Of a stretch of 64,000 bases of DNA, positions 17,625 to 60,078 are shown piece by piece. The DNA comes from Spirochaetia bacterium (lineage in GTDB: Bacteria; Spirochaetota; Spirochaetia; SP-2023). Each line of letters starts with the position of its first letter. Positions within the stretch are counted from its first letter, which is position 1. The DNA lies in the NCBI GenBank assembly GCA_965263295.1, contig OZ253665.1, positions 2,304,001 through 2,368,000 on the forward strand, written 5' to 3'. The notes below the pieces were generated by a model. The model was not told where the DNA came from, made no database searches, and worked only from the letters and a program-made list of their open reading frames with translations. A program made the translations under genes and the position numbers.

Positions 17625-19124
17625 TCATGCAGAATTCACCGCATATCTCATAATTTTTTCTTGTGAGAAATCTTGGCGATGCAGTTCCCCTGTTATCTTG
17701 CCGCCAGCCATTACATAGATGCGATCCGACATGCCTATTAATTCAGGCAATTCAGAAGAAATGAAAATAATTGTCTTACCCAGCTTGACGAAATCCATCA
17801 TCAGTCTATAAATCTCATATTTGGCCCCAATATCGATGCCCCTGGTTGGTTCGTCCATAATCAGGATATCGGGGTCATGTAACATCCACTTGGCTAAAAT
17901 GACCTTCTGCTGATTTCCGCCACTCAACTTATTAATGGTTTTTTCATAGTCTCCGGTATCCAAAGACATTTGCCGGCATATCTTTTTTACGCAGGCAAGC
18001 TCTTTTTGCTTATGAAAGTGCCCGCCATAAAAGAAATCCTTCAAAGATGCCAGGGTCACATTCTCGCGAATACTGCGCTCAGGAATAATGCCATAGCGCC
18101 GGCGATCTTCCGTCAACATGGCCATTCCATTGGCAATACTTTTAGCCAGGTTGATATCACGAACTTCTTCGCCATCTTTTACAATCTGGCCCGAAGCATA
18201 TTTGTCTAAGCCAACGATGGCACGCATTACCTCGGTGCGGCCGGCGCCCATTAATCCCGCAAACCCGACAATCTCGCTATGTTTGGTATAAAAACTGATA
18301 TTTTTAAAAATTTTATTATTAGATAAATCCTTGATCTCTAAAGATACCTGATTATTTTCAGGCAATATTTCCTTTGGAAATCCTGCTGATAGTTCGCGCC
18401 CTACCATCATCGCAATGACTTCCTGGATTGTAAAGTCCTCTTTTTTCCTCGTTTCAATAATCTTTCCATCGCGCAAGATACTGATATCGTCGGCAATCCG
18501 AAAAATTTCATCCATTTTATGCGAAATATAGATGATCCCGACTCCCTGCTCCCTAAGTTTGTGGATTTTTTGCAGCAACATTTCTACTTCATCATTTGTG
18601 ATGGCTGAAGTTGGCTCATCCATAATAATGATATCCGCGTTGCAAGAAACGGCTTTTAATATCTCCAAAATCTGGATATCCGCTATCGAGAGCGTTTTCA
18701 TCTTCATTTTGGGCAAATATTGCAATCCCTCTGTCCGCAGCAGCTCAGTCGTTGCCTTCCGTATTTCGCTCCACTTGACCTTGCCTAATTTATTCGTAAT
18801 CCATTCGCCTAAAAACAAATATTCCTCTATGGTCATTTCGGGAATATAATTTAATTCCTGGGAAATCATAACGATACCGGCTTTTTGCGCATCCAATGGA
18901 CTTCTGGGGGACAAGGGCTGGCCTCGCAGTAAGATCTCACCGCCGTCTGGCTGATAAATACCATGGATAATCTTCATAAGTGTCGATTTTCCGGCGCCAT
19001 TCTCGCCGCACAACACATGTACAGAACCACGCCGGACCGCAAAGCTAACCCGATCCAGGGCCTGGACGCCGGCAAACACCTTGCTTATGTTTGCAATCTG
19101 TAAAATTGGCTCAGACTGCGACAT
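17625..19124 (-). CDS. Monosaccharide/polyol ABC ATPase (two NBDs, RbsA-like)
   Basis: [36 protein letters not shown]; start placed at MSQSEP. Confidence 0.93.
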   Translation of the reverse strand: MSQSEPILQIANISKVFAGVQALDRVSFAVRRGSVHVLCGENGAGKSTLMKIIHGIYQPDGGEILLRGQPLSPRSPLDAQKAGIVMISQELNYIPEMTIEEYLFLGEWITNKLGKVKWSEIRKATTELLRTEGLQYLPKMKMKTLSIADIQILEILKAVSCNADIIIMDEPTSAITNDEVEMLLQKIHKLREQGVGIIYISHKMDEIFRIADDISILRDGKIIETRKKEDFTIQEVIAMMVGRELSAGFPKEILPENNQVSLEIKDLSNNKIFKNISFYTKHSEIVGFAGLMGAGRTEVMRAIVGLDKYASGQIVKDGEEVRDINLAKSIANGMAMLTEDRRRYGIIPERSIRENVTLASLKDFFYGGHFHKQKELACVKKICRQMSLDTGDYEKTINKLSGGNQQKVILAKWMLHDPDILIMDEPTRGIDIGAKYEIYRLMMDFVKLGKTIIFISSELPELIGMSDRIYVMAGGKITGELHRQDFSQEKIMRYAVNSA

Positions 19125-19235
19125 CAACTTTTTGTCGCAATTACCTTCTCGGTCTTTAAAATGCTTTGCAGCCACCAGAAATATACCGCACTGAAAAAGA
19201 AATTGTAGGAAGAGAAATTGTCGTTAGGAGATAAA

Positions 19236-20201
19236 TTATAAATTCCCCGCTCTCTCGTGTATTTCGATGCAGGAATCCACGTTGTTTTTATCAATGACTG
19301 GATTGCCAATATTAATGTCGATCTGGCTCTCTTCGCCCGTCAACAATTTGTGTGTCACAGATAATAGATTTTCAGCCAATTCATAGGCATTTTGAAAAGT
19401 TGTCGACGTCATTCTGCCCTCTTTGATCAATAAAGCGGCCTCGGCCGTGCCGTCAACTCCATACACCAAAACATTGGCAAATTCCGGCTTCCCTTTAATC
19501 ACTTCCAGGGCACCACTCGCCATATTGTCGTTCATGGAAATAATGGCGGCAATGTCATCATGTGCCTGAATCCAGTCTTCCATGTAGTTCATGGCCTCAT
19601 CTTTATTCCAATTGGCAATCTGCTCCGCGACAATCGTCACATCCGGGCGCTGATCAAAAAACTCCTTTTGCCAGCTGAGTCGCCTCTGGTCGGCGTGAAA
19701 GTTTCCCGAAGGACCGTTCAGAACGACGACATTGGCCCCCTGCGGAATCTGCTGTATGCCCAATCGGGCTTGCAATGCTGCCTGCTCATAAGGATCGGCA
19801 TCGACCGACGAAGCCCCGACAATTCCATCAATCCGAGCATTGGTCGTGATACAGGCAATGCCGGCTTGAACGACTTTTTCTGCATATGGCCTCTGCGATT
19901 CTCCATTGTTGGGCTGGATGATAATCGCATCGAATTGGTTGACGATTGCATTTTCAATCAAAGAATTCTGCTTGTCATCTGAAGCTTGACCATCAAAGAT
20001 AACCATTTCTATATCATCATAATTTTCGGCTTCCTTCTCGACAGAATTCGCCAACCAGGCTGCAAATGAATCGGCTTGAGCTCGCGCAATATAAGCGACG
20101 CGAAACTCTTTCTGATTAGCATTGCACCCAATTATCAGAAATATTTGCATAATCACACAAATATTTCTGACAACATTTAACTTTAAGCGTAAAAATTCCA
20201 T
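19236..20201 (-). CDS. Sugar/polyol ABC substrate-binding lipoprotein (RbsB-like)
   Basis: Lipobox-like IIGC, ANWNKDEA, SMNDNMASGA, YGVDG. Confidence 0.88.
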   Translation of the reverse strand: MEFLRLKLNVVRNICVIMQIFLIIGCNANQKEFRVAYIARAQADSFAAWLANSVEKEAENYDDIEMVIFDGQASDDKQNSLIENAIVNQFDAIIIQPNNGESQRPYAEKVVQAGIACITTNARIDGIVGASSVDADPYEQAALQARLGIQQIPQGANVVVLNGPSGNFHADQRRLSWQKEFFDQRPDVTIVAEQIANWNKDEAMNYMEDWIQAHDDIAAIISMNDNMASGALEVIKGKPEFANVLVYGVDGTAEAALLIKEGRMTSTTFQNAYELAENLLSVTHKLLTGEESQIDINIGNPVIDKNNVDSCIEIHERAGNL

Positions 20202-20411
20202 AAAAATTCCCCTTTATATACCTGATGGATAATATGTATAAAAAAGCTGTTAATGATTAAATATATTTTTGCCAATAACAAAATAGATAAAATACGAATG
20301 ACACACGGATAAAATATGAGCTGCAATCATAACAGAAAAAATCTTATTTTACCATCCCAATAATTCCCGTTTTAGTTCTTTTGCCCTCAGGCGATACAAA
20401 AAACCTGATTT

Positions 20412-21446
20412 TCAACTGCATTCTATCGCAATCTTTACTTCAGAAGGCGGCAAAGTAGCTGCATATGCGAATGCGGCACAGCCATCTTTGAAGCTATACG
20501 TTTTTGTTATCAACGGCTCTACATCCAGCATGCCGGACGCAATCAAAGCGATAACTTTGGGAAAAACGTTGGCGTATCTGAATATCGTGTCAATGTGAAT
20601 CTCTTTGACCTGCAGGCCCACGATATCTAAGGTAACAGGAGCAGACGGCATGCCGATGAGCAGCAACTTGCCCCTGGGGCGCAGCAAATCACTGACATGC
20701 TCAAATGCGTGGCGATTGCCACTGGCTTCAAATACCACGTCAAAGTCTTTTATACCGGCAGAAGCCGTCGCTTCAAGGATATTTTGTGCCGATAAATCCA
20801 TGGGAATTATGTGGTTGTAAACTCTTTTAACGAAGCGGAGCTTCTCGCGTTTGACATCAGCAATAAAAACTTTAGATGCTCCAGCTGCTTTAGCTGCAAG
20901 TGCTGTGACAATTCCAATTGTGCCCGCTCCAACGACTAAGACGCGACTTCCACAAGACAGAGCGGACCTTTGCACCGCATATAAGCCAATTGCCAGAGGT
21001 TCGACTAGAGCACCTTGCGCATTGGAAACCTGATCGGGAAGCTTAAATGTCAGAGCTGCGGGATGTACCACCGATTCCCTGAGGCAACCATGCACCGGCG
21101 GCGTAGCCCAGAATCGTAGCGTCGGATCGAGATTGTACATGCCCGAAAGAGTCTCAAAACTAGCAAAGTCGGGGACTCCGGGCTCCATGCATACTCTGTC
21201 CCCCACGGCTAGACCTTTGACATCCGAACCAATTTCAAGCACGATGCCACTTGCCTCATGACCTAAGACCATAGGCTGATCAACGACAAAATCGCCGATC
21301 CGGCCTTCGTTGTAATAGTGAACATCGCTACCGCAGATCCCGACGACCTGAGGCCTGATCCTGACACTGTCCGGGCTAAGGGTCTCGCATATATCAATTT
21401 CCCTGAGATTGACACAACCCTTCTTTTCTAGCACGATAGCCTTCAT
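20412..21446 (-). CDS. Zn-dependent polyol dehydrogenase, xylitol dehydrogenase/D-xylulose reductase type
   Basis: [23 protein letters not shown]...[17 protein letters not shown] (no structural-Zn cysteines), GAGTIG, IFRYAN; ATG 21446 behind CAGGAG. Confidence 0.85.
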
Positions 21447-21709
21447 ATTTTCTCCTGTTTTTATCCGGCAAAGCTGTGACCTAGAATGCTGCACAAACTT
21501 GAACTGCCTCCCAATCTTAACACGGGAGCATGCTTAAAATCAAAAAAAATGTTTAAAATCAAAAAAATTCTATTATGGCTTTGATCTAGGCAGAATTATG
21601 TTGAATGCCCATCATGAATATGATGAATATGATTGGGTGGCTTGCCTGTCGCCGGCAAAACATGGCGGCCTTATTTGACTTGCTCTTTGGCTTTGGTTAA
21701 GCTGCCTTC

Positions 21710-28917: not shown

Positions 28918-30360
28918 CTAGCTCATCCAGTCGACTTTATTTTCGGCGTTCCACTTGGTGCTAATCTTGCGGTGGATGGTCCACAACGGCAATGACTCTG
29001 GGCCGGTAATGTCAGCCGTGCCAAAACGCGAGGCTTTAATGCCGCCAAAGGCAAATGGGTCGCGCGGTACCGGCACGCCGACATTTAGCCCCAACATGCC
29101 GGCTTCCAATTGCCGTAGCAGTTCTGCCGCGCTGCGACCATTCTGGGTGAAAATGGCGGCGGCGTTGCCGTAGGGAGAACGTCGCTGGAGTTCCGCGGCT
29201 TCGTGGATGTTCTTTGCTCCGATGATTTCCAAAGTCGGGCCAAAGATTTCTTCGCTGGGCATCTGGGCGCCGGTTCCCCGATAATCAATAATTGATGTGC
29301 CCATGTAGTAGCCTTGTTCAGGTTTGTCTGCCTTGCGCCCATCTACAACGACATTTGCCCCCGCAGAGCTCACTTTGTCTAGGTAAGCTCCAATCCTGGC
29401 CACCGCCGTCTGCGAGATTAACGGCGGCAAGTCCTTGCCGGCCAGTTGGTTTTGCGCCGCTGCAATCAGCATATCTATGTGCTTGTGCGTATCGCCCACA
29501 GCGAGCAAGACGGAAGCCGCCATACAGCGTTGGCCACCCATGCCCGTCGCCGAGGCTAAAATGTCGCGCACCACCATGTCGGGATCGGCATCGGGCAACA
29601 GAACGATGTGGTTCTTGGCGCCGCCAAAGCTGGCTACGCGCTTGAGGTTTTGCGCGCAGCGTCGGTAGACCACTTCAGCCACGGGAGTCGAACCGACAAA
29701 AGACACGGCGGCAATGCCCGGATGATCGCAAATGCCTTCGACAATGTCTTTGGCCCCGTTGATTACTTGTAGCAAGCCATCGGGCAAGCCGGCCTTTTGC
29801 AAAAGTTCCGCGGCTTTTAGCGCACACAGCGGCGTCATTTCAGAGGGCTTGAGTATCATGGCATTACCCAAGACCAGAACTAAAGGCATTGTCCAGTGCG
29901 GCACCATGAGCGGAAAGTTAAACGGCGCTATCGAGCTGCATACGCCCACGGGGACAAACTCATCGCGGCATTCGACACCGCGGCTGACCATCTGGATGCG
30001 GCCCGTAAGCCAATTTGGCGTGGACGCGGCAAACTCTGCCAGTTCAAGTGCGCGGTCGACGCCGGCCTGGGCTTCCGCCATGGACTTTCCGTTTTCCTTG
30101 TGGCATAGCGCTGCCAGTTCGTCGCGCTGCTGTTGCAAGAGCGCGCGATAATTATACATCACTTGAGCGCGACTCTTGAGGGTGTGGCCGCTCCAGTCTT
30201 CCTGGGCTTTTGCCGCGCTCCTCACCGCGGCATTGAGCTGTTGCTTGCTGGCCAGCCTCATGTTGCCCAATATGCGGCCATCCAAAGGGCTGTCGACAGG
30301 TATTAGTGCCGCCTCGCCGGGGACGTAGGCCCCATTCATCCAGTTGCAGATTTCTTCCAT
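28918..30360 (-). CDS. iolA: CoA-acylating malonate/methylmalonate-semialdehyde dehydrogenase
   Basis: PFNFPLMVP, LKPSE, SFVGSTPVA, GGAKNH, GQRCMA, EEIFGP, NVGVPVP; inositol cluster context. Confidence 0.92.
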   Translation of the reverse strand: MEEICNWMNGAYVPGEAALIPVDSPLDGRILGNMRLASKQQLNAAVRSAAKAQEDWSGHTLKSRAQVMYNYRALLQQQRDELAALCHKENGKSMAEAQAGVDRALELAEFAASTPNWLTGRIQMVSRGVECRDEFVPVGVCSSIAPFNFPLMVPHWTMPLVLVLGNAMILKPSEMTPLCALKAAELLQKAGLPDGLLQVINGAKDIVEGICDHPGIAAVSFVGSTPVAEVVYRRCAQNLKRVASFGGAKNHIVLLPDADPDMVVRDILASATGMGGQRCMAASVLLAVGDTHKHIDMLIAAAQNQLAGKDLPPLISQTAVARIGAYLDKVSSAGANVVVDGRKADKPEQGYYMGTSIIDYRGTGAQMPSEEIFGPTLEIIGAKNIHEAAELQRRSPYGNAAAIFTQNGRSAAELLRQLEAGMLGLNVGVPVPRDPFAFGGIKASRFGTADITGPESLPLWTIHRKISTKWNAENKVDWMS

Positions 30361-30371
30361 GCTGTAAGCTC

Positions 30372-31157
30372 CTATTTGTCTGGCCAGATGACTGCGCTTT
30401 TTTCATTTAGCCAATTGTGCTGCGGGTTGATTGTGCGCTCACGCCAGGGGTCACCGGGGAGGTGGCGGATCATCCAGCAAAAATACATGGCGTAGCCAGG
30501 AGCTGAGGTTTGCGGGTGATCCTGGCCCCCCGCTATCAAGGCCGCACTGCGGTCGCGGATGGCATATGCCCGTTCGCCGATGTGGATTGAACCAAAGCCC
30601 TGCGGGTAGTTAAAGCGGTAGTAATAAATTTCTGGCTGGCGATGCGAGTGCGGGGGGTAGCTGGACCAGCGGCCCGGATGGTTAATGACTTCGCCGAGTA
30701 CCATCTGGGAATATGGCGCCGTGTCGTAGTCAAAGATGGTACAAACCGAACGGACCGCGCTGTCGTGCCATTGTCCGGCGCCAAAGACCTCTACTTTGAT
30801 GTCTTGGGGGCGGTAGTAGCGGGCCGGAAATTCCTTGGGGTTTGTGGCTTGCTGTAAGATTACCTCACTTGGCTCGTCCAGACTTTCGAGCCGTACTTCC
30901 TGTCCTTTGGAGACGTGCAGGCAGCAGGGGGCGTGATCAAAGCAATTGGGGCGCAGGATTTCTTCTGTCCGTCCTTGCCACTGCAGGCGCAGGTGGCCTT
31001 CGATCAGTAATATCGCTGACTCGCGCTGGATATCGCGCAGCACAAAACTGTCTCCCGCGCGCAGGCGCAGGAGGGAAAAGTTTTGGCGCATGCCACTGGC
31101 GTCAGATTCTTGCGTGTAAGTATTTAGTCCATCATTTATGCGGGGTTGGATGAGCAT
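30372..31157 (-). CDS. iolB: 5-deoxy-glucuronate isomerase
   Basis: LGEV..HPGRWSSYPPHSH.QPEIYYYRF, GFG, HPQTSAPGYAMY. Confidence 0.92.
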   Translation of the reverse strand: MLIQPRINDGLNTYTQESDASGMRQNFSLLRLRAGDSFVLRDIQRESAILLIEGHLRLQWQGRTEEILRPNCFDHAPCCLHVSKGQEVRLESLDEPSEVILQQATNPKEFPARYYRPQDIKVEVFGAGQWHDSAVRSVCTIFDYDTAPYSQMVLGEVINHPGRWSSYPPHSHRQPEIYYYRFNYPQGFGSIHIGERAYAIRDRSAALIAGGQDHPQTSAPGYAMYFCWMIRHLPGDPWRERTINPQHNWLNEKSAVIWPDK

Positions 31158-31177: not shown

Positions 31178-32257
31178 CTATGCGTCGGGGTCCGAGATCA
31201 TAAAGTCGCGCACAAGGGAAAGCAGCTTGCTGTAGTCGGCGATAAAGGTGCGCAGGGTTCGCCTTGTGGCGCCAAAGTCGTCGAATTCCTCTGCGTTCAT
31301 GCCGCCGGGCTCGTAGGCGCGCACAAAGTCTGGGTATAAATCCTGCAGCTCGCGCACAATCGCGGGTTCCACAGCTTTACTCATGCGTTCTTCCACCCGG
31401 ACTTTTGACTGGTTGAAACGTTGTTGCCACTTGTGGGGAATGGTCAGGACAATATCGCCGCCAATGAATTCGCTCCAGTGGTAGTGATTGCGATAGGCCG
31501 CCGCCAGTAGGCGACAGCGGTAGCCGCGTTCCCGATAGATGCCATAGGCCCGCTTCATGGCCGCTACGCCCGCCCATTCAAGGATCTCAGGATTGGGAAC
31601 CAAACCTTGCCTGTCGGTGACGATTTTTAACCAGTCGTCCAGTCGTCCCACCATAATGGTGCAGACTGGAGTTAAATGGTCGTTCTCCTTGCCTTCAGAC
31701 TCCCGGCGTCTCAAGCCGCGTTCCACGGCTTCGGCCACGGCTAGCGCCTGTGCCACGGTAAAGCATACTGTGGCATTAATATTAACGCCTCGGTAAGTCG
31801 ACTCTTCTATCGCCGTGATCCCAGCCTGGGTCGCGGGTATTTTAACCATGATATTTGCCGCCAGCGTATCAAAATGTAGGGCCTGCTCGGTCAGTAATTT
31901 GGCCGAGCGATAGTATTGGCCGTTCGTTTGTATGCTAATACGACCTTTTTTTCCCCTTGTCGCCGCGAAAATCGGTTGCAGCAGGCTGCCGCCGGCCACA
32001 GCCATTTCTTCGTTTAATTTCCAGGCAATGTCTACCTCTGTGGCTGCGGGAGACTCGGCAATCCATGCAAGGATGCGGTCTTTCCAGAGCAATAACTCTT
32101 TTTTTAACACTCCGGTCACAATACTGGGGTTACTTGTCGCTCCGCTGGCTCCATGTTCAATAGCATAACGCAGCTCTTCTTGCGAACAGCTATCGTTCCA
32201 TAGATCCGTGGCGCTCGTAGTTACGGTTTCGTGCAATGGACTTTTGTAATTTGACAT
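31178..32257 (-). CDS. Transaldolase-family protein with a non-canonical active site
   Basis: WND, GATSNPSI, Schiff-base MVKIPAT, GVNINATVCF, MVGRLDD, AAAYRN. Confidence 0.88.
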   Translation of the reverse strand: MSNYKSPLHETVTTSATDLWNDSCSQEELRYAIEHGASGATSNPSIVTGVLKKELLLWKDRILAWIAESPAATEVDIAWKLNEEMAVAGGSLLQPIFAATRGKKGRISIQTNGQYYRSAKLLTEQALHFDTLAANIMVKIPATQAGITAIEESTYRGVNINATVCFTVAQALAVAEAVERGLRRRESEGKENDHLTPVCTIMVGRLDDWLKIVTDRQGLVPNPEILEWAGVAAMKRAYGIYRERGYRCRLLAAAYRNHYHWSEFIGGDIVLTIPHKWQQRFNQSKVRVEERMSKAVEPAIVRELQDLYPDFVRAYEPGGMNAEEFDDFGATRRTLRTFIADYSKLLSLVRDFMISDPDA

Positions 32258-32321: not shown

Positions 32322-32350
32322 ATATTATTGCAAAAATTTCAAGTTGTCAA
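32322..32350 (-). promoter_or_regulatory. Sigma70-type promoter for the transaldolase-iolB-iolA unit
   Basis: Minus strand TTGACA-17 nt-TAATAT about 65 nt upstream of the ATG. Confidence 0.65.
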
Positions 32351-32450: not shown

Positions 32451-32478
32451 GCGTTAAAATCGGCGCTGATTTTAACGC
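32451..32478 (-). terminator. Hairpin immediately after the second inositol dehydrogenase stop codon
   Basis: 11 bp perfect stem GCGTTAAAATC / GATTTTAACGC; no clear U-tract. Confidence 0.55.
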
Positions 32479-33500
32479 TAAAGTTCAGATAGCCAGACGC
32501 TGCGTTTTTCTTTCATGGAGCGAGTACAAGCTTCGGCAATTCTAGTCGCCTGTATCCCATCCTGATAGCGTATCGGAGAATTGCGCTTTTCGTTGATGCA
32601 GCTAATAAACTCGCGTACTTCCCGGCGAAACGCTTCGGCAAAACGGTCAAAAAATGTGTAGACACATTCCCCGCGCTGACCATGGGCGTCAAGGATTTCT
32701 ACATCGCAGCAGGTCGGCCGAAAACCGATGCGCAAAATACCTTTGCTGCCATAAATTTCTGCGCAGGTATTGTGGCCATGCGCGGCATTGCGGTTGGCTT
32801 GCAGGATTCCCATTTTACCGCCCTCAAACTCACAGCTGACTACGGCATTGTCCGCGTCGCCAATCTGGCCAAATTCCGGGAAAACCAGACTACTGCCCCG
32901 CGCGTGGACGCTCAATGCTTCGGAACCGAGGTACCAGCGCATCAGGTCGATATCGTGGACACTCATATCGTGGAAAATCCCGCCGGACGTGGCTGTGAAG
33001 GCTAACTGAAAAGGAGCGGAGTCGCTGTGGTCCGAGGTTTGTGAACGCACCATGTAGGGCGCACCGATCAAACCTTGCTCAATTTTTTTCTTGGCATAGC
33101 CATAGGCGGGGTCAAAACGACGCACGAAGCCCAACATGAAAATCTGTTTCTCTTGATATTCGGCAATGACTCTGGCCGTTTTCTCGCAGTCTGCGATTGA
33201 GGTCCCCAGGGGTTTTTCGCAGAATACATGCTTGCCGGCCTGCAGGGCTAAGATGATCTGCTCGCCGTGAACATTGCTGGAACTGGCCAGAAATACGGCG
33301 GAGAAATCCTGCTTCTCTAACATTTCGGTATAATTGTGCCAGAGTTGGCCCCCTTTGAGCTGCAAGTGCCCTTTCGCCCATTCGAGTTCTGCCGGCACCA
33401 CGCTGCAGGCCGCGACAATCTGGCAACCAGGTGTTTGCAGCAGATTTTCCGCGTGACTTTTGCCCATTCGTCCCAGGCCGACTATGGCCAATTTAACCAT
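32478..33500 (-). CDS. Gfo/Idh/MocA inositol-type dehydrogenase (second paralogue)
   Basis: GLGRMG, HVFCEKP, GFVRRFD, SGGIFHDMSVHDID, FFDRFAEAF. Confidence 0.85.
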   Translation of the reverse strand: MVKLAIVGLGRMGKSHAENLLQTPGCQIVAACSVVPAELEWAKGHLQLKGGQLWHNYTEMLEKQDFSAVFLASSSNVHGEQIILALQAGKHVFCEKPLGTSIADCEKTARVIAEYQEKQIFMLGFVRRFDPAYGYAKKKIEQGLIGAPYMVRSQTSDHSDSAPFQLAFTATSGGIFHDMSVHDIDLMRWYLGSEALSVHARGSSLVFPEFGQIGDADNAVVSCEFEGGKMGILQANRNAAHGHNTCAEIYGSKGILRIGFRPTCCDVEILDAHGQRGECVYTFFDRFAEAFRREVREFISCINEKRNSPIRYQDGIQATRIAEACTRSMKEKRSVWLSEL

Positions 33501-33574: not shown

Positions 33575-34477
33575 CTAGAACCCACAGAGTTGGCGTATGT
33601 ATTCACGGCCTTGTTTGGCGTATTCGAACGGGTTGGCGAGGGCCGGGTCCTGTTCCGCCTCGACGACAATCCAACCCCGGTAGTCGGCGTTTTGCAAAAC
33701 GGCAAAAATTGTTTTAAAGTCGATATTCCCGGCATCTCCTGGCACGGTAAACAAACCTCGGCGCACGGCTTCCAGAAAACTCAAGCCCTGTTCTCGCGTC
33801 TGTCGCAGCACGGCCGGGCGCACATCCTTTAAGTGGACGTGCCCTAGGCGGCTTTGGGCGTTTTGCAGCAGGGCCAGGACATCGGCCTGGGCCGCGCAAG
33901 CGTGCCCCGAATCAAACAGGGCGGACACGTAGTCCGGGTGGGTCGCGTCCAGGTAGCGAGCGAATTCCTCTTGACTTTCGACGCAGGTTCCCAGGTGGTA
34001 GTGGAAACAAAAACGAATGCCGTACTCTTCGCGGGCAATTTTACCCAATTCATTTGAGCCCTGGCACAACTGTTTCCAAGCCGCGGCATCCAGCCGGGGG
34101 CGCTGTGCGCCAAACACCGGCACGTCTCGCCCTTGTATGCTCCCTGTCTGCTCCGAGGCGCCAATGACTCTGGCTCCCATCTCGCGCAGGAAGGCGGCCT
34201 GGCGATGTAGCAGCTGGATATTCTCCCGCAAGCTACGGCTCGTTAAAAACATGCTGAACCACTGGTTGCAGATGCGCAAGCCGCGTATTTCAAGCATCTT
34301 TCGCAGTTTCGCCGGCTGGTCGACGGGGTATTTGTTGCCGACTTCACAGCCGGCATAGCCCGCCAGGGCCATTTCTGAAATACACTGTTCGAATGGAATC
34401 TCGCCACCCAGGTCCGGCAGGTCGTCGTTGGACCAGTTGATTGGTGCGATGCCGAAAAATACGTTGTCTTTGTCCAT
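33575..34477 (-). CDS. iolE: myo-inosose-2 (2-keto-myo-inositol) dehydratase
   Basis: GIAPINWSNDD, EMALAGYAGCEVGNKYP, HVHLKD, FTVPGD, VEAEQDP. Confidence 0.95.
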   Translation of the reverse strand: MDKDNVFFGIAPINWSNDDLPDLGGEIPFEQCISEMALAGYAGCEVGNKYPVDQPAKLRKMLEIRGLRICNQWFSMFLTSRSLRENIQLLHRQAAFLREMGARVIGASEQTGSIQGRDVPVFGAQRPRLDAAAWKQLCQGSNELGKIAREEYGIRFCFHYHLGTCVESQEEFARYLDATHPDYVSALFDSGHACAAQADVLALLQNAQSRLGHVHLKDVRPAVLRQTREQGLSFLEAVRRGLFTVPGDAGNIDFKTIFAVLQNADYRGWIVVEAEQDPALANPFEYAKQGREYIRQLCGF

Positions 34478-34539: not shown

Positions 34540-36462
34540 TCAATATTGCCGGGCTTCGCGGCGGTGCTGCTCCATGTCGCGGCAGGCTGCCGCCACCTTG
34601 GGATTGCGCGAAACTTCGGGCGTGCCGGCGTTCCACCAGGTCTCGTAACCATCCGTCATCGATTTGACCACACACTTGGCGACTATAACAGCTGTCTGTG
34701 GGCTGGATCTCGCTCGGACAATGGCTCTCCGCAGTTCTTCCTCGTTGCTGGCATTCAGGCCCAAACAACCGTAGCTCTGGGCATTGAGTGCAAAATCCAC
34801 CGGCAAATAAGGGCCGTCGAGTTCGCCACTCGCGCTGCGGAATCGGCGCTCACAGCCAAAGCGGCGAATGCCTTGTGAGGTTTGTAAGTTGTCGATGCAC
34901 TGCCAGCCGCCGTTGTCGAACAGCATGACGTTAATTTTTATGCCTTCGGCGACTGCCGTGAGCAACTCCTGATGATACATCAAATAAGTTCCATCGCCGA
35001 TCAAGACCCAGACTTCCCGTTGTGCTTCGGCCTGCTCTACGGCCAGGCGAGCCCCGATGCCGCCGGGAATTTCATAACCCATGCACGAATATGCGTATTC
35101 CAGGTGGTAGCCGCCCGCGACCTCGCAGCGCCAGAGGCGCTCCAGGTCTGAAGGCAGGCTGCCGCCAGAACAGATCGCGATGGCATCTTTGGGCAGAAGC
35201 TCTTGCATAACGCCAAGTACTTGTGATTGCATGAGTTGACCCAAGGCGTTGTCACTGCCCGCGTCGCTGCTGAATTCGTCCCGCAATGCGCCCGTGTAGT
35301 GCAAGCCGTAAAGGCGCTCGACTTCGCTGTCCCACTCGGCCTTGACGGCGGCGATGGCTTGGTGGTCGCTGCGGTAGCCCTGGAGTAACGGCCTGAGCTC
35401 GGCGAGGGCCAGTTTTGCGTCTGCCAGTACCGGTAGGGCGTCCAGTTTGTACGCGTCCATGGCGTTGACGTTGATGCCAATTACCTGCAGTTCGGGGCAG
35501 CGAAAAGCCCACTTCGAGGCGGTGTGGAAGTCGTTGAGCCGGGTTCCCACGGCGATCAGGCAGTCGATATCTTTTGCGATGCGGTTGGCTGCCAGGGTGC
35601 CAGTGGTGCCGACCGCCCCAAGGTTTAGGGGGTGATTCCAGGGCACTTGCCCCTTGCCGGCCTGGGTCTCCATAATGGGAATCTGGCACTGCTCCGCCAG
35701 GGCGATGACTTCGCTGGTGGCAAAAGAATAGCGCACGCCGCCACCGATAAGCAGGGCCGGACGGCTCTTGCCGCGTATCTTGGCGGCGATCAGGCTGGCC
35801 ATGCCCGGATTCCCGCTGCAGGGCGGGGACAATGGACGTCGCTGGATTTCGTGAACGCGTTTCTGGAAAAAATGTTCTGGGTAGTTCCAGGCTTCGGCCG
35901 CCACGTCCTGTGGCAGCGACAAGGTCACCGCCCCGGTCTGGGCCGGGTCGCTGAGGATGCGCACGGCGTGGATACAGGCCGTCATTAGCTGTTGCGGACG
36001 GCTAATGCGGTCCCAGTACTTACTGACGGCGCGGAAGGCATCGTTGGATGAAATGGAATGATCGTGTTCCTGCTCGACTTGTTGCAGTACCGGATCGGGC
36101 TGGCGGTTGGCAAAGATGTCGCCGGGCAAGAACAGCACGGGGATGCGATTGGCGGTGGCTGTCGCCGCCGCCGTGACCATATTCATGGCCCCGGGGCCCA
36201 CGGAGCTGATACAGGCCATAATTTGCCGGCGCTCATTCTGCTTGGCAAAGCCAATGGCCATGTGACCGCCGCCCTGCTCGTTTTGTACGCGGTAAAATTT
36301 TAAATTGTTTTCACACTCGGCCAGAGCCTCGCCGATGCCCAATACGCAGCCGTGTCCAAAGATTCCAGCCACGCCGTGGACAAACTTGTATTCCCGGCCG
36401 TCCAGACGCAAATATTGCACGTCGAGAAAGCGGATCAAGGCTTGCGCTGTCGTCAGTTTCAT
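34540..36462 (-). CDS. iolD: 3D-(3,5/4)-trihydroxycyclohexane-1,2-dione acylhydrolase (ThDP-dependent)
   Basis: LTTAQALIRFL, GIFGHG, ANRIPVLFLPGD, PDPVLQQ, YHLEYAYSCMGYEI, GDGTYLM; ATG 36462 behind AGGAG. Confidence 0.96.
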   Translation of the reverse strand: MKLTTAQALIRFLDVQYLRLDGREYKFVHGVAGIFGHGCVLGIGEALAECENNLKFYRVQNEQGGGHMAIGFAKQNERRQIMACISSVGPGAMNMVTAAATATANRIPVLFLPGDIFANRQPDPVLQQVEQEHDHSISSNDAFRAVSKYWDRISRPQQLMTACIHAVRILSDPAQTGAVTLSLPQDVAAEAWNYPEHFFQKRVHEIQRRPLSPPCSGNPGMASLIAAKIRGKSRPALLIGGGVRYSFATSEVIALAEQCQIPIMETQAGKGQVPWNHPLNLGAVGTTGTLAANRIAKDIDCLIAVGTRLNDFHTASKWAFRCPELQVIGINVNAMDAYKLDALPVLADAKLALAELRPLLQGYRSDHQAIAAVKAEWDSEVERLYGLHYTGALRDEFSSDAGSDNALGQLMQSQVLGVMQELLPKDAIAICSGGSLPSDLERLWRCEVAGGYHLEYAYSCMGYEIPGGIGARLAVEQAEAQREVWVLIGDGTYLMYHQELLTAVAEGIKINVMLFDNGGWQCIDNLQTSQGIRRFGCERRFRSASGELDGPYLPVDFALNAQSYGCLGLNASNEEELRRAIVRARSSPQTAVIVAKCVVKSMTDGYETWWNAGTPEVSRNPKVAAACRDMEQHRREARQY

Positions 36463-36586
36463 GTTGACTCCTTTCACTATCTTTTTGTTGTCTACCAGCT
36501 ATCAAACGTATGACGTTTCGGCCCCTGAGGTACAAAATCAAATCCCGTAAATTAACTCTCTTGATTCACTTTTTTCGCAGTGATGA

Positions 36587-37594
36587 TCACAAGCGGACCA
36601 GCGAACCGCCGTTTGCCAGCGACTCTTTGGCTGCCAGCCCCAGCTCCGTGGCGCGCAGGCCATCTACGCCAGAGACTTCCACCGCGCTGTCCTCGCGCAA
36701 GGCGCGAACAAAGGATTGCAGCTCGGAGGTGTAGGCCGCCTGGTAACGTTCGAGGAAAAATGGCAAGGGCGTGTCACCTTCACTGCCATCTGCGCTGAAA
36801 TGTCGTACGTTGTGGGAATAATCGTTGTCGCACAAGGACATTCCCTTGGAGCCAAAGACTTCAATGCGCTGGTCGTAGCCGTACGCGGCCTGGCGTGAGT
36901 TGTCGATCGCGCCCAAGGCCCCGTTGCGAAATTGCAGGGTCACTAGGGCGGTGTCGATATCCCCGGCCCGGCCGATCTCAGGGGCGAGCAGGCAAGTCCC
37001 CAAAGCCTGCAATGCGGTCACTTCGCCAAACTGAAACCGGGCCATGTCGAAGTCGTGGATCATCATGTCGAGAAACAGTCCGCCTGAGACTTTGATGTAG
37101 TCAATTGGCGGCGGTGACGGGTCGCGCGAGGTGATTCTCAAAAGCTGCGGTTCGCCAATTTTCTTTGAAGTCACAGCATGGCGGAGCTGGGCGAAGTTGT
37201 GATCAAAGCGGCGGTTAAAGCCAATTTGCAGTTTGACCCCCGCATTTTCTACCGCTCTCAGTGTCTCCCCGATGCGTGCCGTGTCGAAGTCGATTGGCTT
37301 TTCGCAGAAGATGTGCTTGCCCGCGGCTGCGGCTTGCTGGATGTATTGCGCGTGCGTATCTGTCGAAGAGCAGATGAGCACGGCATCAATCGTAGGGTCT
37401 TCGATAATTTTGCGGGCTTCCAGGTGTGTGGCGACGGCACTGGCTCCGCGCGCCTGCAAGCAGTCCCGATCTTTTAGAAACGGGTCGCTAATTGCCGTCA
37501 GTTGAACTCCTTCTAATTTGTGCAAGAGGCATTGGGCATGCACCCGGCCGATGCGCCCAAAACCGATGATGCCGAATTTCAATATTTTACTCAT
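36587..37594 (-). CDS. iolG: myo-inositol 2-dehydrogenase
   Basis: GFGRIG, CSSTDTH, FCEKP, GFNRRFD, ITSRDP, SGGLFLDMMIHDFD, YGYDQRIE, FFLERY. Confidence 0.93.
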   Translation of the reverse strand: MSKILKFGIIGFGRIGRVHAQCLLHKLEGVQLTAISDPFLKDRDCLQARGASAVATHLEARKIIEDPTIDAVLICSSTDTHAQYIQQAAAAGKHIFCEKPIDFDTARIGETLRAVENAGVKLQIGFNRRFDHNFAQLRHAVTSKKIGEPQLLRITSRDPSPPPIDYIKVSGGLFLDMMIHDFDMARFQFGEVTALQALGTCLLAPEIGRAGDIDTALVTLQFRNGALGAIDNSRQAAYGYDQRIEVFGSKGMSLCDNDYSHNVRHFSADGSEGDTPLPFFLERYQAAYTSELQSFVRALREDSAVEVSGVDGLRATELGLAAKESLANGGSLVRL

Positions 37595-37753: not shown

Positions 37754-38716
37754 TCAATCCTTCTGGTTGCGCCTGAGCTGGTCGAGAAACACGGCCAATA
37801 CTATGATAAGGCCTTTGACGATTTGCTGCCAGTAGGGGTCGACACCGAGGAGGTTTAGGCCATTGTTAATGACGCCTACGATGATTGCTCCCAGAATGCA
37901 CAAGGCCACTGATCCTTTGCCGCCGCTCAAAGAGGTCCCACCTATGACTGTGGAGGCGATGGCATCCAGTTCATACATTACTCCATACGTCGGATTGGCA
38001 GCCATAGTGGTGGAAACTAGAATATTACCACTGATACCCGCAGCGATACCGGCAAACATATAAGTCAGAACCAAACACTTTTCCACGCGGACACCACAGA
38101 TGCGCGCGGCGTTTTCATTGCCGCCAATGGCGATGATATGGCGTCCATAACGCATTTTGTCAAGAAGAATAAAGGCGATAAGGGCAAAAGCCAGGTAAAC
38201 GTAGACGACGCCGGGAATGCCCAGGACAGAATTAATGCCTAACCAGGTCATTGAGGAGGGGAGTTCACCGACGGGCCGCCCATTGGAAACCACGGCAGCC
38301 ATGCCGCGTGCGGCCGTCATCATGCCCAGGCTTACGATAAATGGTGGAATCTTGCCGTAAGCGACGATTGAGCCATTGATTAAACCACATAGCAGACCGA
38401 CCAGAACCGCGACTAGAATACCGAGGAGCCCCATGGCCGTCCCGTGACCGCTGGCGACTTGGGCGCCGACAATGCCTGAAAGGGCAATGACCGATCCGAG
38501 CGAAAGATCAATGCCACCCGTGATGATGACAAAGGTTACCCCAATTGCGATAATGCCAATGGGGGTGACCTGTTCCAAGATATTGAGCAGATTCTGCAAG
38601 CGAAAAAAACGACCGCCAGACATTGCTCCCATGAACAAGACGAGTAGAAGCAAAATAACCAACATTCCAAATTTATTAAAAAAATTGCTGCGCAAGATTT
38701 TTAAGACAGAGTTCAT
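37754..38716 (-). CDS. Inositol/sugar ABC permease (CUT2)
   Basis: [37 protein letters not shown]. Confidence 0.92.
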
Positions 38717-38750
38717 TATTTTTTACACCTCTCTTTTTAAAGAACGAGAT

Positions 38751-40289
38751 TCAGCATCTATTTTTTAAGACATCGCGCACGCGCTCGCCAGTCGCCATGC
38801 GCAACACACTTTCCTGGCTGGCATAGGCGCGAGGTAATGCCCCAGAGGACTTGCCGTCGTGCAAGACTAGAATCCGGTCACTCATTGAAAGGAGTTCCAG
38901 CATGTCGGAAGAAACCATAATGATCGACTTCCCCTCGCTAACGAGTTCTTCCATGATGCTATAGATTTCATGTTTGGCCCCGACATCAATGCCTTTGGTC
39001 GGCTCGTCCATAATCAAAATGGCGGGGTCGAGGAGTAACCAGCGGGCAATCAGGGCTTTTTGCTGGTTGCCGCCGGACAGATTGTTCATTATTGTGCCCA
39101 AATTCGGAGTTTTTATGCGTAGAGATTTACAAAATTTGGTGGCTTGGCGTTTTATCTCGCGAAAATTTAACAAGTGACTGCCTTTCTTTATAAACTTATT
39201 TAAATCTGGCAGTGCAATATTGTCGCTTACACTCATATTGAGAAAACAGCCGGTGAGTTTGCGATCTTCGGTAATAATGCCTATACCGGCTTGTATGGCT
39301 TCAATCGGATTCTGGAACGGGGCTCGTTCCTTGCCATTAATCGTAATTGTGCCTTGGTCTGCCGGCACATAGCCAAATATGGCTTCCATGACTTCGCTGC
39401 GGCCCGCTCCCATTAAACCGGCGACACCTAAAATTTCACCCTTGCGCAACTGGAAGCTGATATCATTAAATCTGTCCTTGCGGCAAAGGTTCTTGACTTG
39501 AAAGGTCACTTCTTTTTGTGGTTCCGTGGTCTTGTTAAAGAAATCTTTGACTTCTCGCCCGACCATCATGCGTATCATTTCCTCTTTTGTGATGTTTGCG
39601 ACGTCGCGCGTACCCACGACTTCGCCATCGCGAAACACAGTGACTTCGTCGGCAATGTTAAAAATCTCATCGAGCTTGTGAGAAATATATATAAAAGAGA
39701 CACCACGTTTATTTACTGTTTTTACAATGCGATACAAGCGCTCGACCTCGGCTTCGGTCAGTGCCGTGGTCGGTTCGTCCAGGATGATCAGTTTGGCGTT
39801 GTAAGTCACAGCTGTCGCGAGGGAGAGCAACTGGGCCTGTGCCACTGAGACTTCACTCATGTTGACAGCGGCATTTTCGGCCATTTCGGGAATGCCTAGT
39901 TCTTGGAGTATGCGCCGGGTTGTCAAGCGCATGTTTTTCTTGTCGAGAAAAATACCGTGACTCAAAAACTCGCGGCCCAAGTACAAGTTTGCGGTCATGG
40001 TAATGTTGGGCACCGGGCTGACTTCCTGCGGAACAATTGCCACGCCGCGTTTTAGTGCGTCTAAAGGACTTTGCGGTCGGTAGGCCCGGCCATCCAGGAG
40101 CATGGTGCCACCGGGATCCGGGTTGTAGATACCGTACAGAGTCTTGACTAGTGTCGATTTTCCGGCCCCATTTTCCCCCATCAGGGCATGAACTGAACCT
40201 TTCTTCACTGTGAAGTCGATATTTTGTAAGGCCAATACGCCGGGGAAAGTCTTGGAGACATTTTTTATTTCAAGAACATTGTCAGACAT
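38751..40289 (-). CDS. Inositol/sugar ABC ATPase (two NBDs)
   Basis: [35 protein letters not shown]; start placed at MSDNVL. Confidence 0.93.
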
Positions 40290-40386
40290 ATTGTTTCTCT
40301 TTGTCACAAGGACGAACAGCCAAATGAGCTTCGGTCCAGGGCGATCGCGGGCCGGCAACTTTGCTTTGAGGTCAGATATGCAAAGA

Positions 40387-40428
40387 GGGGCAATCGGAGA
40401 GTCGGGACTCCAGTTCGCCGATTGCTCC
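40387..40428 (-). promoter_or_regulatory. Hairpin between binding-protein and ATPase genes
   Basis: GGGGCAATCGG ... CCGATTGCTCC with inner GAGTC/GACTC. Confidence 0.5.
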
Positions 40429-40467
40429 AAATTTTATCTAATTTTACCCAAGCTTCTCTAGGCGCTA

Positions 40468-41430
40468 TTAATCCTGTTTATAGTCGGAAGCATTTTCCTC
40501 GGTAACTAGCTCAAATGGAACCCAAATCCTCGCTTCTGCCTTCTCGCCTTTGGCCCATTTGTAAGCGGCTTCGGCCGCGCCGCGGCCTTGGGCCACCGCA
40601 TTTTGAAAGACCGAAAAGTCCAGACCTTGACCCAAATATTCTAAGGCATCTGGCGTTGCGTCGATACCGCCAATGATTATGTCATCATCACCCTTTCCCG
40701 CTTTCTGTGCGGCCAAAACAGCGCCAATAGCCATTTCGTCATTGTTGGCCAAAATTACGTTCATATCTGGATGAGCCTGAAACCAGTCCTGGGCTACAGC
40801 GAGTCCCTTGGCGCGATCCCATTGGCCTGTCTGTTGGGCAATTATTGTCAAGTTGGGATATTTTTGGTTGATGGTTTCTTCAATGCCTTTAGTTCGGCCA
40901 ATTTGCGCCGCCTGTCCGATTGGTCCCATCAGAATGCCAATTTTTCCCGCGGCTCCACCGAGCAACTCGGCCGTTTGATCGGCCTGGATGATACCGGCAT
41001 CTTCTTCGCGAGAACCGACATAGGTATTCACATATTGCATGCTTTCATCCGTGCCCAGACGATTTGCCAGGACCAGTGGAATTCCGGCTTTTTGGGTCTT
41101 CTGTCCGATGACCAGTACGATGTCCGGGTCGGTAGGGATTAATAATAAAGCATTGACGCCCTCTACAATAAAGTTGTCTACGTCGTTGAGTTGGCGTTTG
41201 GGATCAAGGTTGGCATCCGTCAGCTTAAAGATGACATCTGAATGTTCGGCGTCAAAGGCGCGAATCGCATCGTATAAATATGTCTGCCATTTATCCGCAA
41301 AAGAATGGGTTGGAACTCCAATGATATATTGACTCCCTCCCGCGTCGCCCGCCGCGCTTAAATTCGTGCTGGCAGTGATTCCAATTAATATTGCCAGCAA
41401 AATCCCTGACAACTTTGATTTTTTGTTCAT
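40468..41430 (-). CDS. Inositol/sugar ABC substrate-binding protein
   Basis: Signal peptide, YVGS, WDRAKG, ANNDEMAIGA, GGIDATPDAL, VFQNA, WVPFELVT; RBS GGAGG. Confidence 0.9.
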   Translation of the reverse strand: MNKKSKLSGILLAILIGITASTNLSAAGDAGGSQYIIGVPTHSFADKWQTYLYDAIRAFDAEHSDVIFKLTDANLDPKRQLNDVDNFIVEGVNALLLIPTDPDIVLVIGQKTQKAGIPLVLANRLGTDESMQYVNTYVGSREEDAGIIQADQTAELLGGAAGKIGILMGPIGQAAQIGRTKGIEETINQKYPNLTIIAQQTGQWDRAKGLAVAQDWFQAHPDMNVILANNDEMAIGAVLAAQKAGKGDDDIIIGGIDATPDALEYLGQGLDFSVFQNAVAQGRGAAEAAYKWAKGEKAEARIWVPFELVTEENASDYKQD

Positions 41431-41523
41431 ATCAACCTCCACATGAACTCCAGATGAGCCATTAATAAAGCTTACCAACGTATAAAACTATCATTGAGCT
41501 GGTACAAATGTCTTATATTTAAG

Positions 41524-41750: not shown

Positions 41751-42494
41751 ATGAAAAATCGGGCAGACAAACGCAATGTAACCCTGGCTGAACAGGTCTT
41801 GAATCAGATAATTCGCCGCCTGGCGGCTCAGGCGTTACCTCTGGGAAGTAAATTACCTACAGAAAAAGAGATATCAGAAGAGCTCAACGTCGGGCGTTCG
41901 AGTGTCCGCGAGGCAATTAAGACTTTGAATGCTCTGGGCTTAGTGCGCTCAACTGCCGGCTCAGGTTCTTACCTGGAGCAGACCAATGTATATGGTAAAC
42001 TGGCTTTATTTGCTTCTTTATTAAACGGGCAGGATCGCCAGGAGATGATTGATCTCAGGGCGAGTATTGAGCTCTATGCTCTGCTGCAATTTCACAGGGA
42101 TTTACATCGCGATCACAGCACGTTTTCCCAAGAATATATTCAGAATATAGAGAAAACTCTGGGGGAATTGACCCAGACCGTGAAATCCATGTTTGAGTCG
42201 GCGTCAAAAGCTGATTTTGCGGCCTTGGAACGAGAAGATTTTCAGTTTCACCAGTGTATTTTGTATTACCCGCAGAATGGCTTGATTATAGACTTGTTCC
42301 ACAATTTGGAGCAATTTATGCATGAGGAGATCAAGGAATCTTACTATAAAGTTCCAGCCAAAGAAGTTGCACGTAATCACCAGAGTTTGTTGGAGGCCAT
42401 TAAAAATCCCAATCTGGGCGACTTGATTCGCAATTTTGAGTTTCACATGAATGACACGAAGAATAAAGTTATGCGCGCCAGTCATAATCATTAG
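41751..42494 (+). CDS. GntR/FadR-family transcriptional regulator, divergent from the iol operon
   Basis: wHTH KLPTEKEISEELNVGRSSVREAIKTL; FCD domain with DFQFH. Confidence 0.93.
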   Translation: MKNRADKRNVTLAEQVLNQIIRRLAAQALPLGSKLPTEKEISEELNVGRSSVREAIKTLNALGLVRSTAGSGSYLEQTNVYGKLALFASLLNGQDRQEMIDLRASIELYALLQFHRDLHRDHSTFSQEYIQNIEKTLGELTQTVKSMFESASKADFAALEREDFQFHQCILYYPQNGLIIDLFHNLEQFMHEEIKESYYKVPAKEVARNHQSLLEAIKNPNLGDLIRNFEFHMNDTKNKVMRASHNH

Positions 42495-59473: not shown

Positions 59474-59490
59474 GGTCTATTATCCTCTTT

Positions 59491-60078
59491 CTAGGGTTGA
59501 GAGCCACCGCCGCTTGCCTGGGTATCTTGAGATGCTTCCGGAGATACTTCCTGGGATGCTTTGGAGGTTCCACGGATACTGCTGTCGCTGACGTCTAGAT
59601 CCAGCGGCAGTTGCCAGCGGTAGAGCAGGCCGCATATGGCAATTACGGTGGCGTAGCTCAAGCTCTGGTCGGCGCGCAAGCGGATGCGTCGGACATCCTG
59701 AGACCAGAGATTTTGCAGGCTGAGCTGCAGGGCTTTGAGTAAGTGCCCTGTGTCGAGAAAAGCTGCAGAGTTGTGTGCCTCGGCCAGTATGCGCCGGTCC
59801 TGCAAACTTTGCAATTGGATGCTGTAGCTCAGGTCTGGGCGCACGGCCAGCAACAACAGCTCCCCGTCATTTTCGCGTGCGGACGGGTTTTGCTTATTTT
59901 CGGCGGCGTTAGTCATATATGGCGGCCGCACTCCGAGGCTGCGTTGCGCTGGACTATTGTTGACCATAAAAAAAATCAGGACCAAGAACATGATGTCAAT
60001 TAGTGGGGTCAGCATTGGGCCGCGGTCAAGTAGGCTGCCCAGCAAGCTGCGGCGGGCGGAAACCCTAACTCGTCGCAT
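59491..60078 (-). CDS. exbD: ExbD/TolR family protein
   Basis: LTPLIDIMFLVLIFFMV with conserved Asp, IRLRADQSLSY. Confidence 0.88.
   Translation of the reverse strand: MRRVRVSARRSLLGSLLDRGPMLTPLIDIMFLVLIFFMVNNSPAQRSLGVRPPYMTNAAENKQNPSARENDGELLLLAVRPDLSYSIQLQSLQDRRILAEAHNSAAFLDTGHLLKALQLSLQNLWSQDVRRIRLRADQSLSYATVIAICGLLYRWQLPLDLDVSDSSIRGTSKASQEVSPEASQDTQASGGGSQP

Follow-up and report, generated by a model that had tools for sequence, protein, structure and literature searches.

How does the inositol operon of this spirochaete complete the lower branch of the pathway in a genome where no IolC was found above cut-off (best match 99 bits against 300), and what does the transaldolase-family gene of the operon contribute? 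The window analysed here, 64,000 nucleotides of contig OZ253665.1 (positions 2,304,001 to 2,368,000 of the forward strand; assembly GCA_965263295.1) from a Spirochaetia bacterium, carries the genes in the order binding protein-ABC-permease-iolG-iolD-iolE-iolG2-P0001-iolB-iolA, with a GntR gene divergent from them (Table 1); P0001 is the gene in question. The iolB-like gene begins 21 bases past the P0001 stop, and the iolA/mmsA-like protein scores far higher with TIGR01722 than with other aldehyde dehydrogenase models. A sigma70-like site ahead of P0001 may drive it together with iolB and iolA; such sites, called by consensus match alone, number 25 against 11.3 +/- 3.3 in shuffles. Elsewhere in the window, positions 17625-21494 encode the ATPase and the binding protein of another sugar ABC importer together with a zinc-dependent polyol dehydrogenase, and from 56001 to 62000 the AT skew is strongly negative (-0.19 to -0.32) and the GC skew positive.

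Table 1. Features of the inositol operon and its surroundings (positions in the window; DKG, 2-deoxy-5-keto-D-gluconate).
Feature	Position	Strand	Basis or remark
iolA/mmsA-like CoA-acylating malonate-semialdehyde dehydrogenase	28918..30360	minus	TIGR01722 420 bits, cut-off 448.5
iolB-like 5-deoxy-glucuronate isomerase	30372..31157	minus	PF04962 199 bits; TIGR04378 92, cut-off 205
Gln/Met transaldolase-family gene (P0001)	31178..32257	minus	359 aa; PF00923; candidate DKG-cleaving enzyme
sigma70-like promoter match	32322..32350	minus	10/12 consensus, in 220-base gap before P0001
second inositol-dehydrogenase-like gene (iolG2)	32478..33500	minus	TIGR04380 315.8 bits, cut-off 355
iolE myo-inosose-2 dehydratase	33575..34477	minus	TIGR04379 365 bits, above cut-off
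iolD trihydroxycyclohexanedione acylhydrolase	34540..36477	minus	TIGR04377 820 bits, above cut-off
iolG inositol 2-dehydrogenase	36587..37594	minus	TIGR04380 437 bits, above cut-off
sugar ABC importer: permease, ATPase, binding protein	37754..41478	minus	PF02653, PF00005, PF13407
divergent GntR/FCD regulator	41751..42494	plus	PF00392 + PF07729

The genome itself, one contig at 92.6% completeness, gave no match to DUF2090, three PfkB-family matches and one class II aldolase, which is distant from the iol operon. Three of its genes belong to PF00923, namely P0001, a canonical TalB and a short BmSF-TAL-like gene, the last two encoded elsewhere; P0001 was considered as the housekeeping transaldolase and set aside on account of that TalB. 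The short gene (L083:1492-2169; G000:C1 about 1945780-1946460) matches BmSF-TAL with an E value of 8.7e-88, carries the motifs VGW and AALR and lies beside a Gfo/Idh/MocA protein in what is a probable sulfoquinovose (sulfo-TAL) locus. A single glycerol/dihydroxyacetone (DHA) locus (L084; G000:C1 772123-776305), far from the iol operon, contains dhaK, dhaL, an aquaglyceroporin and glycerol kinase.

In the Pfam profile search PF00923 was the sole family to match P0001 (144 bits, cut-off 27), and neither PF01116 nor PF09863, the families of the class II aldolase IolJ and of the DUF2090 aldolases, matched it. The protein falls under the cut-off of all 10 matching NCBIfam models for transaldolase and fructose-6-phosphate aldolase (FSA), the best reaching 107.7 bits against 367 and TIGR00875 36.9 against 245.95. 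A sequence-only reading of the gene had suggested superposing a predicted structure on TalB and FSA; the AlphaFold model (pLDDT 96.9) adopts the transaldolase fold and lies nearest the long-type enzymes of Neisseria (Z 39.5, rmsd 2.0 over 321) and Corynebacterium (Z 38.5), followed by E. coli TalB (Z 32.5, rmsd 2.4 over 286), BmSF-TAL (Z 21.9) and FSA (Z 20.6). Residue Q110 ends the strand 106-110, K139 lies inside the strand 136-141 and M202 ends the strand 198-202. Foldseek and VIA-align returned no solved relative closer than 21-26% identity, and a search of the ESM Atlas returned only clusters automatically named transaldolase. The Pfam score, the fold match and an invariant Schiff-base lysine, K139, place P0001 within the PF00923 superfamily.

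The residues reported by the sequence-only reading (D22, N43, Q110, K139, M202, R205, A254, Y255 and R256) stand as given. Columns are named here by E. coli TalB residue numbers; the titles of PDB entries among the matches name D17, N35, E96, T156, S176, F178 and R181 as studied sites. The TalB sugar-binding set Asp17, Asn35, Asn154, Thr156 and Ser176 is represented in P0001 by D22, N43, N161, T163 and T200, the last a Thr for Ser that resembles transaldolase Ser176 more than FSA Ala129. Replacement of Glu96 by Gln110, of Phe178 by Met202 and of Ser226 by Ala254, as originally described, was borne out by phmmer, hhalign, the AlphaFold model and the fold matches. Alignment by phmmer with the Neisseria and Corynebacterium transaldolases pairs Q110 with the Glu of VSLEV/VSIEV and M202 with the second Phe of SFF(I/V)SR, and hhalign of a 120-sequence profile against the organism's own canonical TalB sets GRISIQTNG opposite GYVSTEVDA and LAAAYR opposite MGASFR. 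Gln in place of the acid/base Glu96 and Met in place of Phe178 are each found in 120/120 aligned sequences, and in the phosphate site formed in TalB by Arg181, Ser226 and Arg228 both arginines are kept (R205 and R256) and the serine has become Ala254. Q110 corresponds to FSA Gln59; the catalytic Tyr131 of FSA is replaced by Met202, Y255 belonging to a different column that often holds Phe, and the FSA short type has about 220 aa against 359 here. Judged by the residues that define the two types in these alignments, P0001 belongs neither with the canonical transaldolases nor with the FSA enzymes.

Two residues were examined as possible substitutes for the missing acid/base group. A plain two-sequence alignment misplaces the P0001 segment TEVD (residues 73-76, window 32030-32041) onto the catalytic STEVD of TalB, and E74 might in that case be a displaced Glu96; the column match is contradicted by the profile alignments and by the model. 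All core-clade sequences (120/120) have E74, but only 18 of 41 distant full-length representatives do. Y255, proposed earlier as a proton relay, aligns in hhalign with TalB F227. Among the 80 locus sequences covering this position it is Tyr in 66 and Phe, Leu or Ile in 14 (12, 1 and 1, respectively), and all 10 Prolixibacteraceae copies that replace iolC (see below) have Phe, reading AAFR, so that Y255F occurs naturally. The part of the earlier proposal that holds is that P0001 departs from both known types at key positions and that a carboxylate ketose without phosphate is the likely substrate; the relay through Y255 is not supported. The substrate assignment follows more strongly from gene context and from the in-place replacement of iolC than from the residues.

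The residue pattern is widely shared. A clade alignment, likewise suggested at the outset, was made from the best 120 of at least 8000 homologue candidates (61-100% identity, P0001 included) and shows Q110, M202, A254 and R256 invariant in 120/120. In 83 sequences derived from clade loci, Q110 is present in 82/82 and M202 in 81/81 of those covering the position, and 41 full-length distant representatives of the 150 listed have Gln in 40 and Met in 30. The 80 clade loci span eight phyla according to their record titles. The alignments indicate that the Gln/Met protein is a member of a conserved clade and not a drifting copy. Two distant Gln-bearing paralogues (27-32%; L134:8538-9578 and L135:8967-10019) carry Val or Gln where P0001 has Met202, and one of them adjoins a glycyl radical enzyme, a split transketolase and a TRAP transporter; by their sequences these are further uncharacterised subfamilies.

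The distribution of the clade was compared with that of iolC in 151 Prolixibacteraceae genomes (the family of G025), sampled by family, with iolD as the sole criterion for selection. Of these, 35 contain iolD and 25 of the 35 contain iolC; the clade is found in exactly the 10 iolC-less genomes and in 0/25 of those with iolC, or in 7/7 against 0/25 when three previously known carriers are left out. None of 15 iolD-negative controls, sampled from 116, carries it. The genomes are kin and not independent, so that a Fisher value overstates the association; on a quick iolD tree (36 rows) the iolC/clade label switches 7 times, at least 4 of these being forced by well-supported branches, and one clade copy shares no more than 47-49% identity with the remaining nine. 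The order iolJ-like-iolB-iolC-iolD is seen in 23 of 24 iolC stretches, the remaining one ending at a contig edge, and in G354 iolC is on a separate contig. The 10 clade-positive stretches read iolB-clade-iolD in five cases and clade-iolB-iolD in five, contain no iolC remnant, and have the iolJ-like class II aldolase intact in 2, truncated in 1 and absent in 7. In the Prolixibacteraceae the P0001 clade is an in-place swap into the iolC or iolJ slot.

Outside the Bacteroidota the exclusion between clade and iolC is weaker. In a Clostridia sample (the class of G012; 399 scored genomes, 20 with iolD) the clade was found in 4/9 iolC-negative genomes, adjoining iolD, and in 2/11 iolC-positive ones, unlinked to iolD; five iolD genomes have neither, and the iolD-negative controls gave 0/10, or 0/25 when pooled with those above. 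In the spirochaete's own phylum only 6/251 genomes have iolD, too few to give a phylum-wide contingency test any power, and the other five comprise three with iolC only, one with the clade only and one with neither. Searches of 51 clade-positive genomes, that is, the own genome and 50 of the 80 clade loci chosen mostly for iol neighbours, found iolD in 36 and IolC above cut-off in 12. In five of these 12 iolC lies by a second iolD, i.e. in a separate canonical cluster, and G035/G036 have iolC and the clade gene together in one cluster, with iolC directly after iolD. Of the 81 stretches made up of the 80 loci and the window, iolD is present in 33 and at least one of iolD, iolE and iolB in 38; many of the 43 without any of them are short contigs. 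The closest genomic relative (74%; L002:5899-8872) has the same operon with an iolC-like gene and a second iolB. It is the only one of the 81 stretches with iolC and an iolJ piece, the latter N-terminal and fused to a xylose-isomerase-like barrel, which suggests a decaying or incoming canonical branch. Clusters with iolD but with neither the clade nor iolC above cut-off were also seen (L087 and L129-L132, in G262, G477, G677, G825 and G616) and are possibly further lower branches or incomplete genomes.

IolB acts on 5-deoxy-D-glucuronate, and its product is DKG. By our own derivation DKG, written in its ketose form, corresponds to 5-deoxy-D-fructuronate; at C3 and C4 it is configured like fructose-6-phosphate (F6P), and it has a carboxylate where F6P has its phosphate end. 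We consider it very probable that P0001 cleaves this unphosphorylated compound to malonate semialdehyde. In the proposed reaction the operon's IolB would supply DKG, Lys139 would form a Schiff base at its keto carbon, and Arg205 and Arg256 would grip its carboxylate; a retro-aldol cut between C3 and C4 would free malonate semialdehyde for the neighbouring IolA and leave the DHA unit bound to the enzyme. The bound unit would then be moved onto glyceraldehyde-3-phosphate (G3P) to give F6P, as in the sulfo-TAL pathway. Combined with a PPi-dependent phosphofructokinase, and only then, this transfer route would save one ATP per inositol; the genome encodes two phosphofructokinases, one of which has a GGND/PKTIDND motif that we take to be of the PPi type. 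We give the scheme as a whole, in which P0001 as a Schiff-base enzyme replaces IolC and IolJ and transfers the DHA unit to G3P, an even chance of being correct. The proton would most likely be handled by a water held by Gln110 and Thr163 together with Asp22, or by the substrate carboxylate, a candidate because it is beta to the hydroxyl that loses the proton, and not by equivalents of Glu96 or Tyr131; in the clade alignment no invariant residue obviously replaces either. E74 might also participate, and these relay proposals are speculative.

Transfer of the DHA unit to G3P, for which the odds appear balanced, is preferred here to its release as free DHA, which we regard as somewhat unlikely. 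Were DHA released, P0001 would be a true aldolase acting on the same substrate, the DHA would be phosphorylated by DhaKL or glycerol kinase, and there would be no ATP saving. Such an aldolase is suggested by the Gln in the Glu96 column, as in FSA, and transaldolases in which this Glu has been engineered to Gln perform poorly as transferases. On the other hand, the FSA relay requires Tyr131, and the residue there is a Met without a hydroxyl in 81/81; the transaldolase-like T200 and both arginines (R205 and R256) are retained, and the Ser-to-Ala change is common to sulfofructose transaldolase, which still uses G3P. As to the fate of DHA, DhaK is found in 39/51 clade-positive genomes and GlpK, which is able to phosphorylate DHA, in 40/48 genomes and in 7/10 clade-positive Prolixibacteraceae; the own genome has DhaK/DhaL and GlpK. 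DhaK/DhaL are nevertheless encoded in 0/81 clade stretches, DhaK is not enriched (2/10 clade-positive against 7/25 iolC-positive Prolixibacteraceae), and two possibly incomplete genomes, G417 and G425, gave no match to DhaK or GlpK. The kinases leave both outcomes possible, in keeping with the sequence-only reading, which had left transfer versus cleavage open. Aldolase action would also fit the recruitment of the clade, at least three times, into sulfoquinovose-type clusters, and the co-induction of a relative with glycerol dehydrogenase and DHA kinase reported by Borusak et al. 2024 (PMC11659671, seen in part), although glycerol derived from SQ-glycerol explains that dehydrogenase and kinase equally, as the accessible text also says.

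Two further readings assign P0001 another substrate. It could be a class I DKG-6-phosphate aldolase standing in for IolJ, with IolC or an unrecognised kinase acting before it, a reading favoured by a few clusters, in G035/G036, G002 and G024, which have iolC and the clade gene without an intact iolJ (in G002 an iolC-like gene of 282.6 bits and an N-terminal iolJ piece only). This is highly unlikely, given that in the Prolixibacteraceae it is iolC that the clade replaces, iolC being lost in 10/10 and an intact iolJ kept in 2/10, that 39/51 clade-positive genomes have no IolC above cut-off, and that N161 and T200 keep the transaldolase C1-hydroxyl site, where no basic residue has been gained that could bind a C1 phosphate. 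It is also improbable, if less so, that P0001 is a general F6P/S7P transaldolase, an F6P aldolase or an enzyme of another keto acid (e.g. 5-keto-gluconate) that balances carbon: occurrence of the clade in sulfoquinovose, AOR, xanthine-dehydrogenase-type and IolM/IolO-like loci, and as an orphan, would fit such a role, but a housekeeping function would not track iolC loss gene for gene, a TalB is already in the genome, and the iolD-negative controls are free of the clade.

Members in sulfoquinovose clusters show that the clade extends beyond inositol catabolism. In a survey of 401 genomes from the order of G050, 10 carry it; the eight stretches gained in this way comprise three linked to iol genes and five in sulfoquinovose-type clusters, and G635 supplies a sixth. 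These clusters (one on a short contig) hold GH31, an SftI-like isomerase, a BmSF-TAL-like gene, a split transketolase and an RpiB-like gene. The clade member mostly adjoins the BmSF-TAL-like gene, beside which a second transferase looks redundant. On a FastTree clade tree, which came with long-branch warnings, the sulfoquinovose-linked copies occupy at least three places among the iol-linked ones. DhaK is present in 5/5 tested genomes with such copies, and two of these members are accompanied, at 10-13 kb, by a glycerol-dehydrogenase-like gene and DhaKL. Clade members at L001, L051, L060, L069 and L078 stand beside aldehyde ferredoxin oxidoreductase, xanthine-dehydrogenase-type subunits and transketolase, or IolM/IolO-like genes, neighbours pointing to other keto-acid substrates.

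Among known systems the proposed reaction of P0001 would most resemble that of sulfofructose transaldolase transposed to a carboxylate. SqvA/SftT (BmSF-TAL, PDB 8bc2-8bc4) likewise performs a kinase-free C3+C3 split of an F6P analogue with a non-phosphate anion, and shares the Schiff-base Lys, an Ala at the Ser226 position (AALR in 8bc3) and an aldehyde dehydrogenase that follows it. It differs in being short and decameric, in keeping Glu61 and Phe and in having Trp138 in the anion site, where P0001 is long and has Gln, Met and Arg205; the Trp-Ala-Arg sulfonate motif described in the part of PMC11659671 available is Arg-Ala-Arg in P0001, with Gln for Glu61, and SqvA sits in a sulfoquinovose cluster and P0001 in an iol operon. 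TalB and the Neisseria/Corynebacterium long type have in common with P0001 the fold and the equivalents of D17, N35, K132, N154, T156, R181 and R228, and differ at 21-26% identity by the Glu, Phe and Ser replaced here. FsaA of E. coli shares the Gln, the Schiff-base Lys and Thr109 (T163), and differs in Tyr131 (Met202), Ala129 (Thr) and length (220 against 359 aa). A further relative is F2 of Faecalicatena sp. DSM22707, of about 354 aa, whose residues D23, Q111, K140, N162 and T201, as given in the accessible text (PMC11659671), follow the P0001 spacing; a clade member 51% identical to P0001 bears the same residue numbers and Met203, and we infer that F2 belongs to the clade. Unlike P0001, F2 lies in a sulfoquinovose cluster and is SQ-induced, and an F6P aldolase activity is suggested for it from a model only (PMC11659671, in part), where the accessible text does not take up the Phe/Tyr position. 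Details given here of the Glu/Tyr swap and of the BmSF-TAL structure are in part second-hand (PMC13259622, PMC11659671 and PMC12890257).

IolC with IolJ (B. subtilis) and IolC-DUF2090 (GapMind, PMC9007349) occupy the same pathway position and form the net products predicted for P0001, but in them DKG is phosphorylated before a class II or LacD-like aldolase acts; the P0001 operon gave no match to either family. IolJ and DUF2090 are the known DKG-6-phosphate aldolases in the portion of that source consulted (PMC9007349), and the available part of PMC9430895 counts iolC among the core, essential genes for breaking down inositol, a view under which clusters without it are read as incomplete. Megamonas MAGs without iolC/iolJ are described in the accessible text of PMC13617567 and Dysosmobacter without iolJ in that of PMC13311982, the latter with no mention of transaldolase in the text available. 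Within the literature found, which lies largely outside subscription journals and was available in part, no transaldolase-family enzyme is assigned to inositol catabolism; supplements could list the gene.

In FSA a water is held by Q59, T109 and Y131, and residue swaps interconvert transaldolase and aldolase activities (PMC13259622, in the part available). It is accepted that the acid/base site, Glu or Tyr, decides between transferase and aldolase, and a large natural family with neither puts that rule to a direct test. More tentatively, and at somewhat less than even odds, the clade may form a catalytic class of its own, the third in the transaldolase family, with neither Glu nor Tyr, spread over at least eight phyla of anaerobes, in which an ATP-sparing 'inositol-TAL' pathway has repeatedly displaced IolC/IolJ in place and the relay is the substrate carboxylate or a relocated acid. 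If the proposal is true, the P0001 clade would close the iolC gap with one gene, giving inositol catabolism a lower branch parallel to sulfo-TAL. The fermentation of inositol and phytate is important in guts and sediments, and the clade may be a source of aldol catalysts for carboxylate aldehydes that carry no phosphate.
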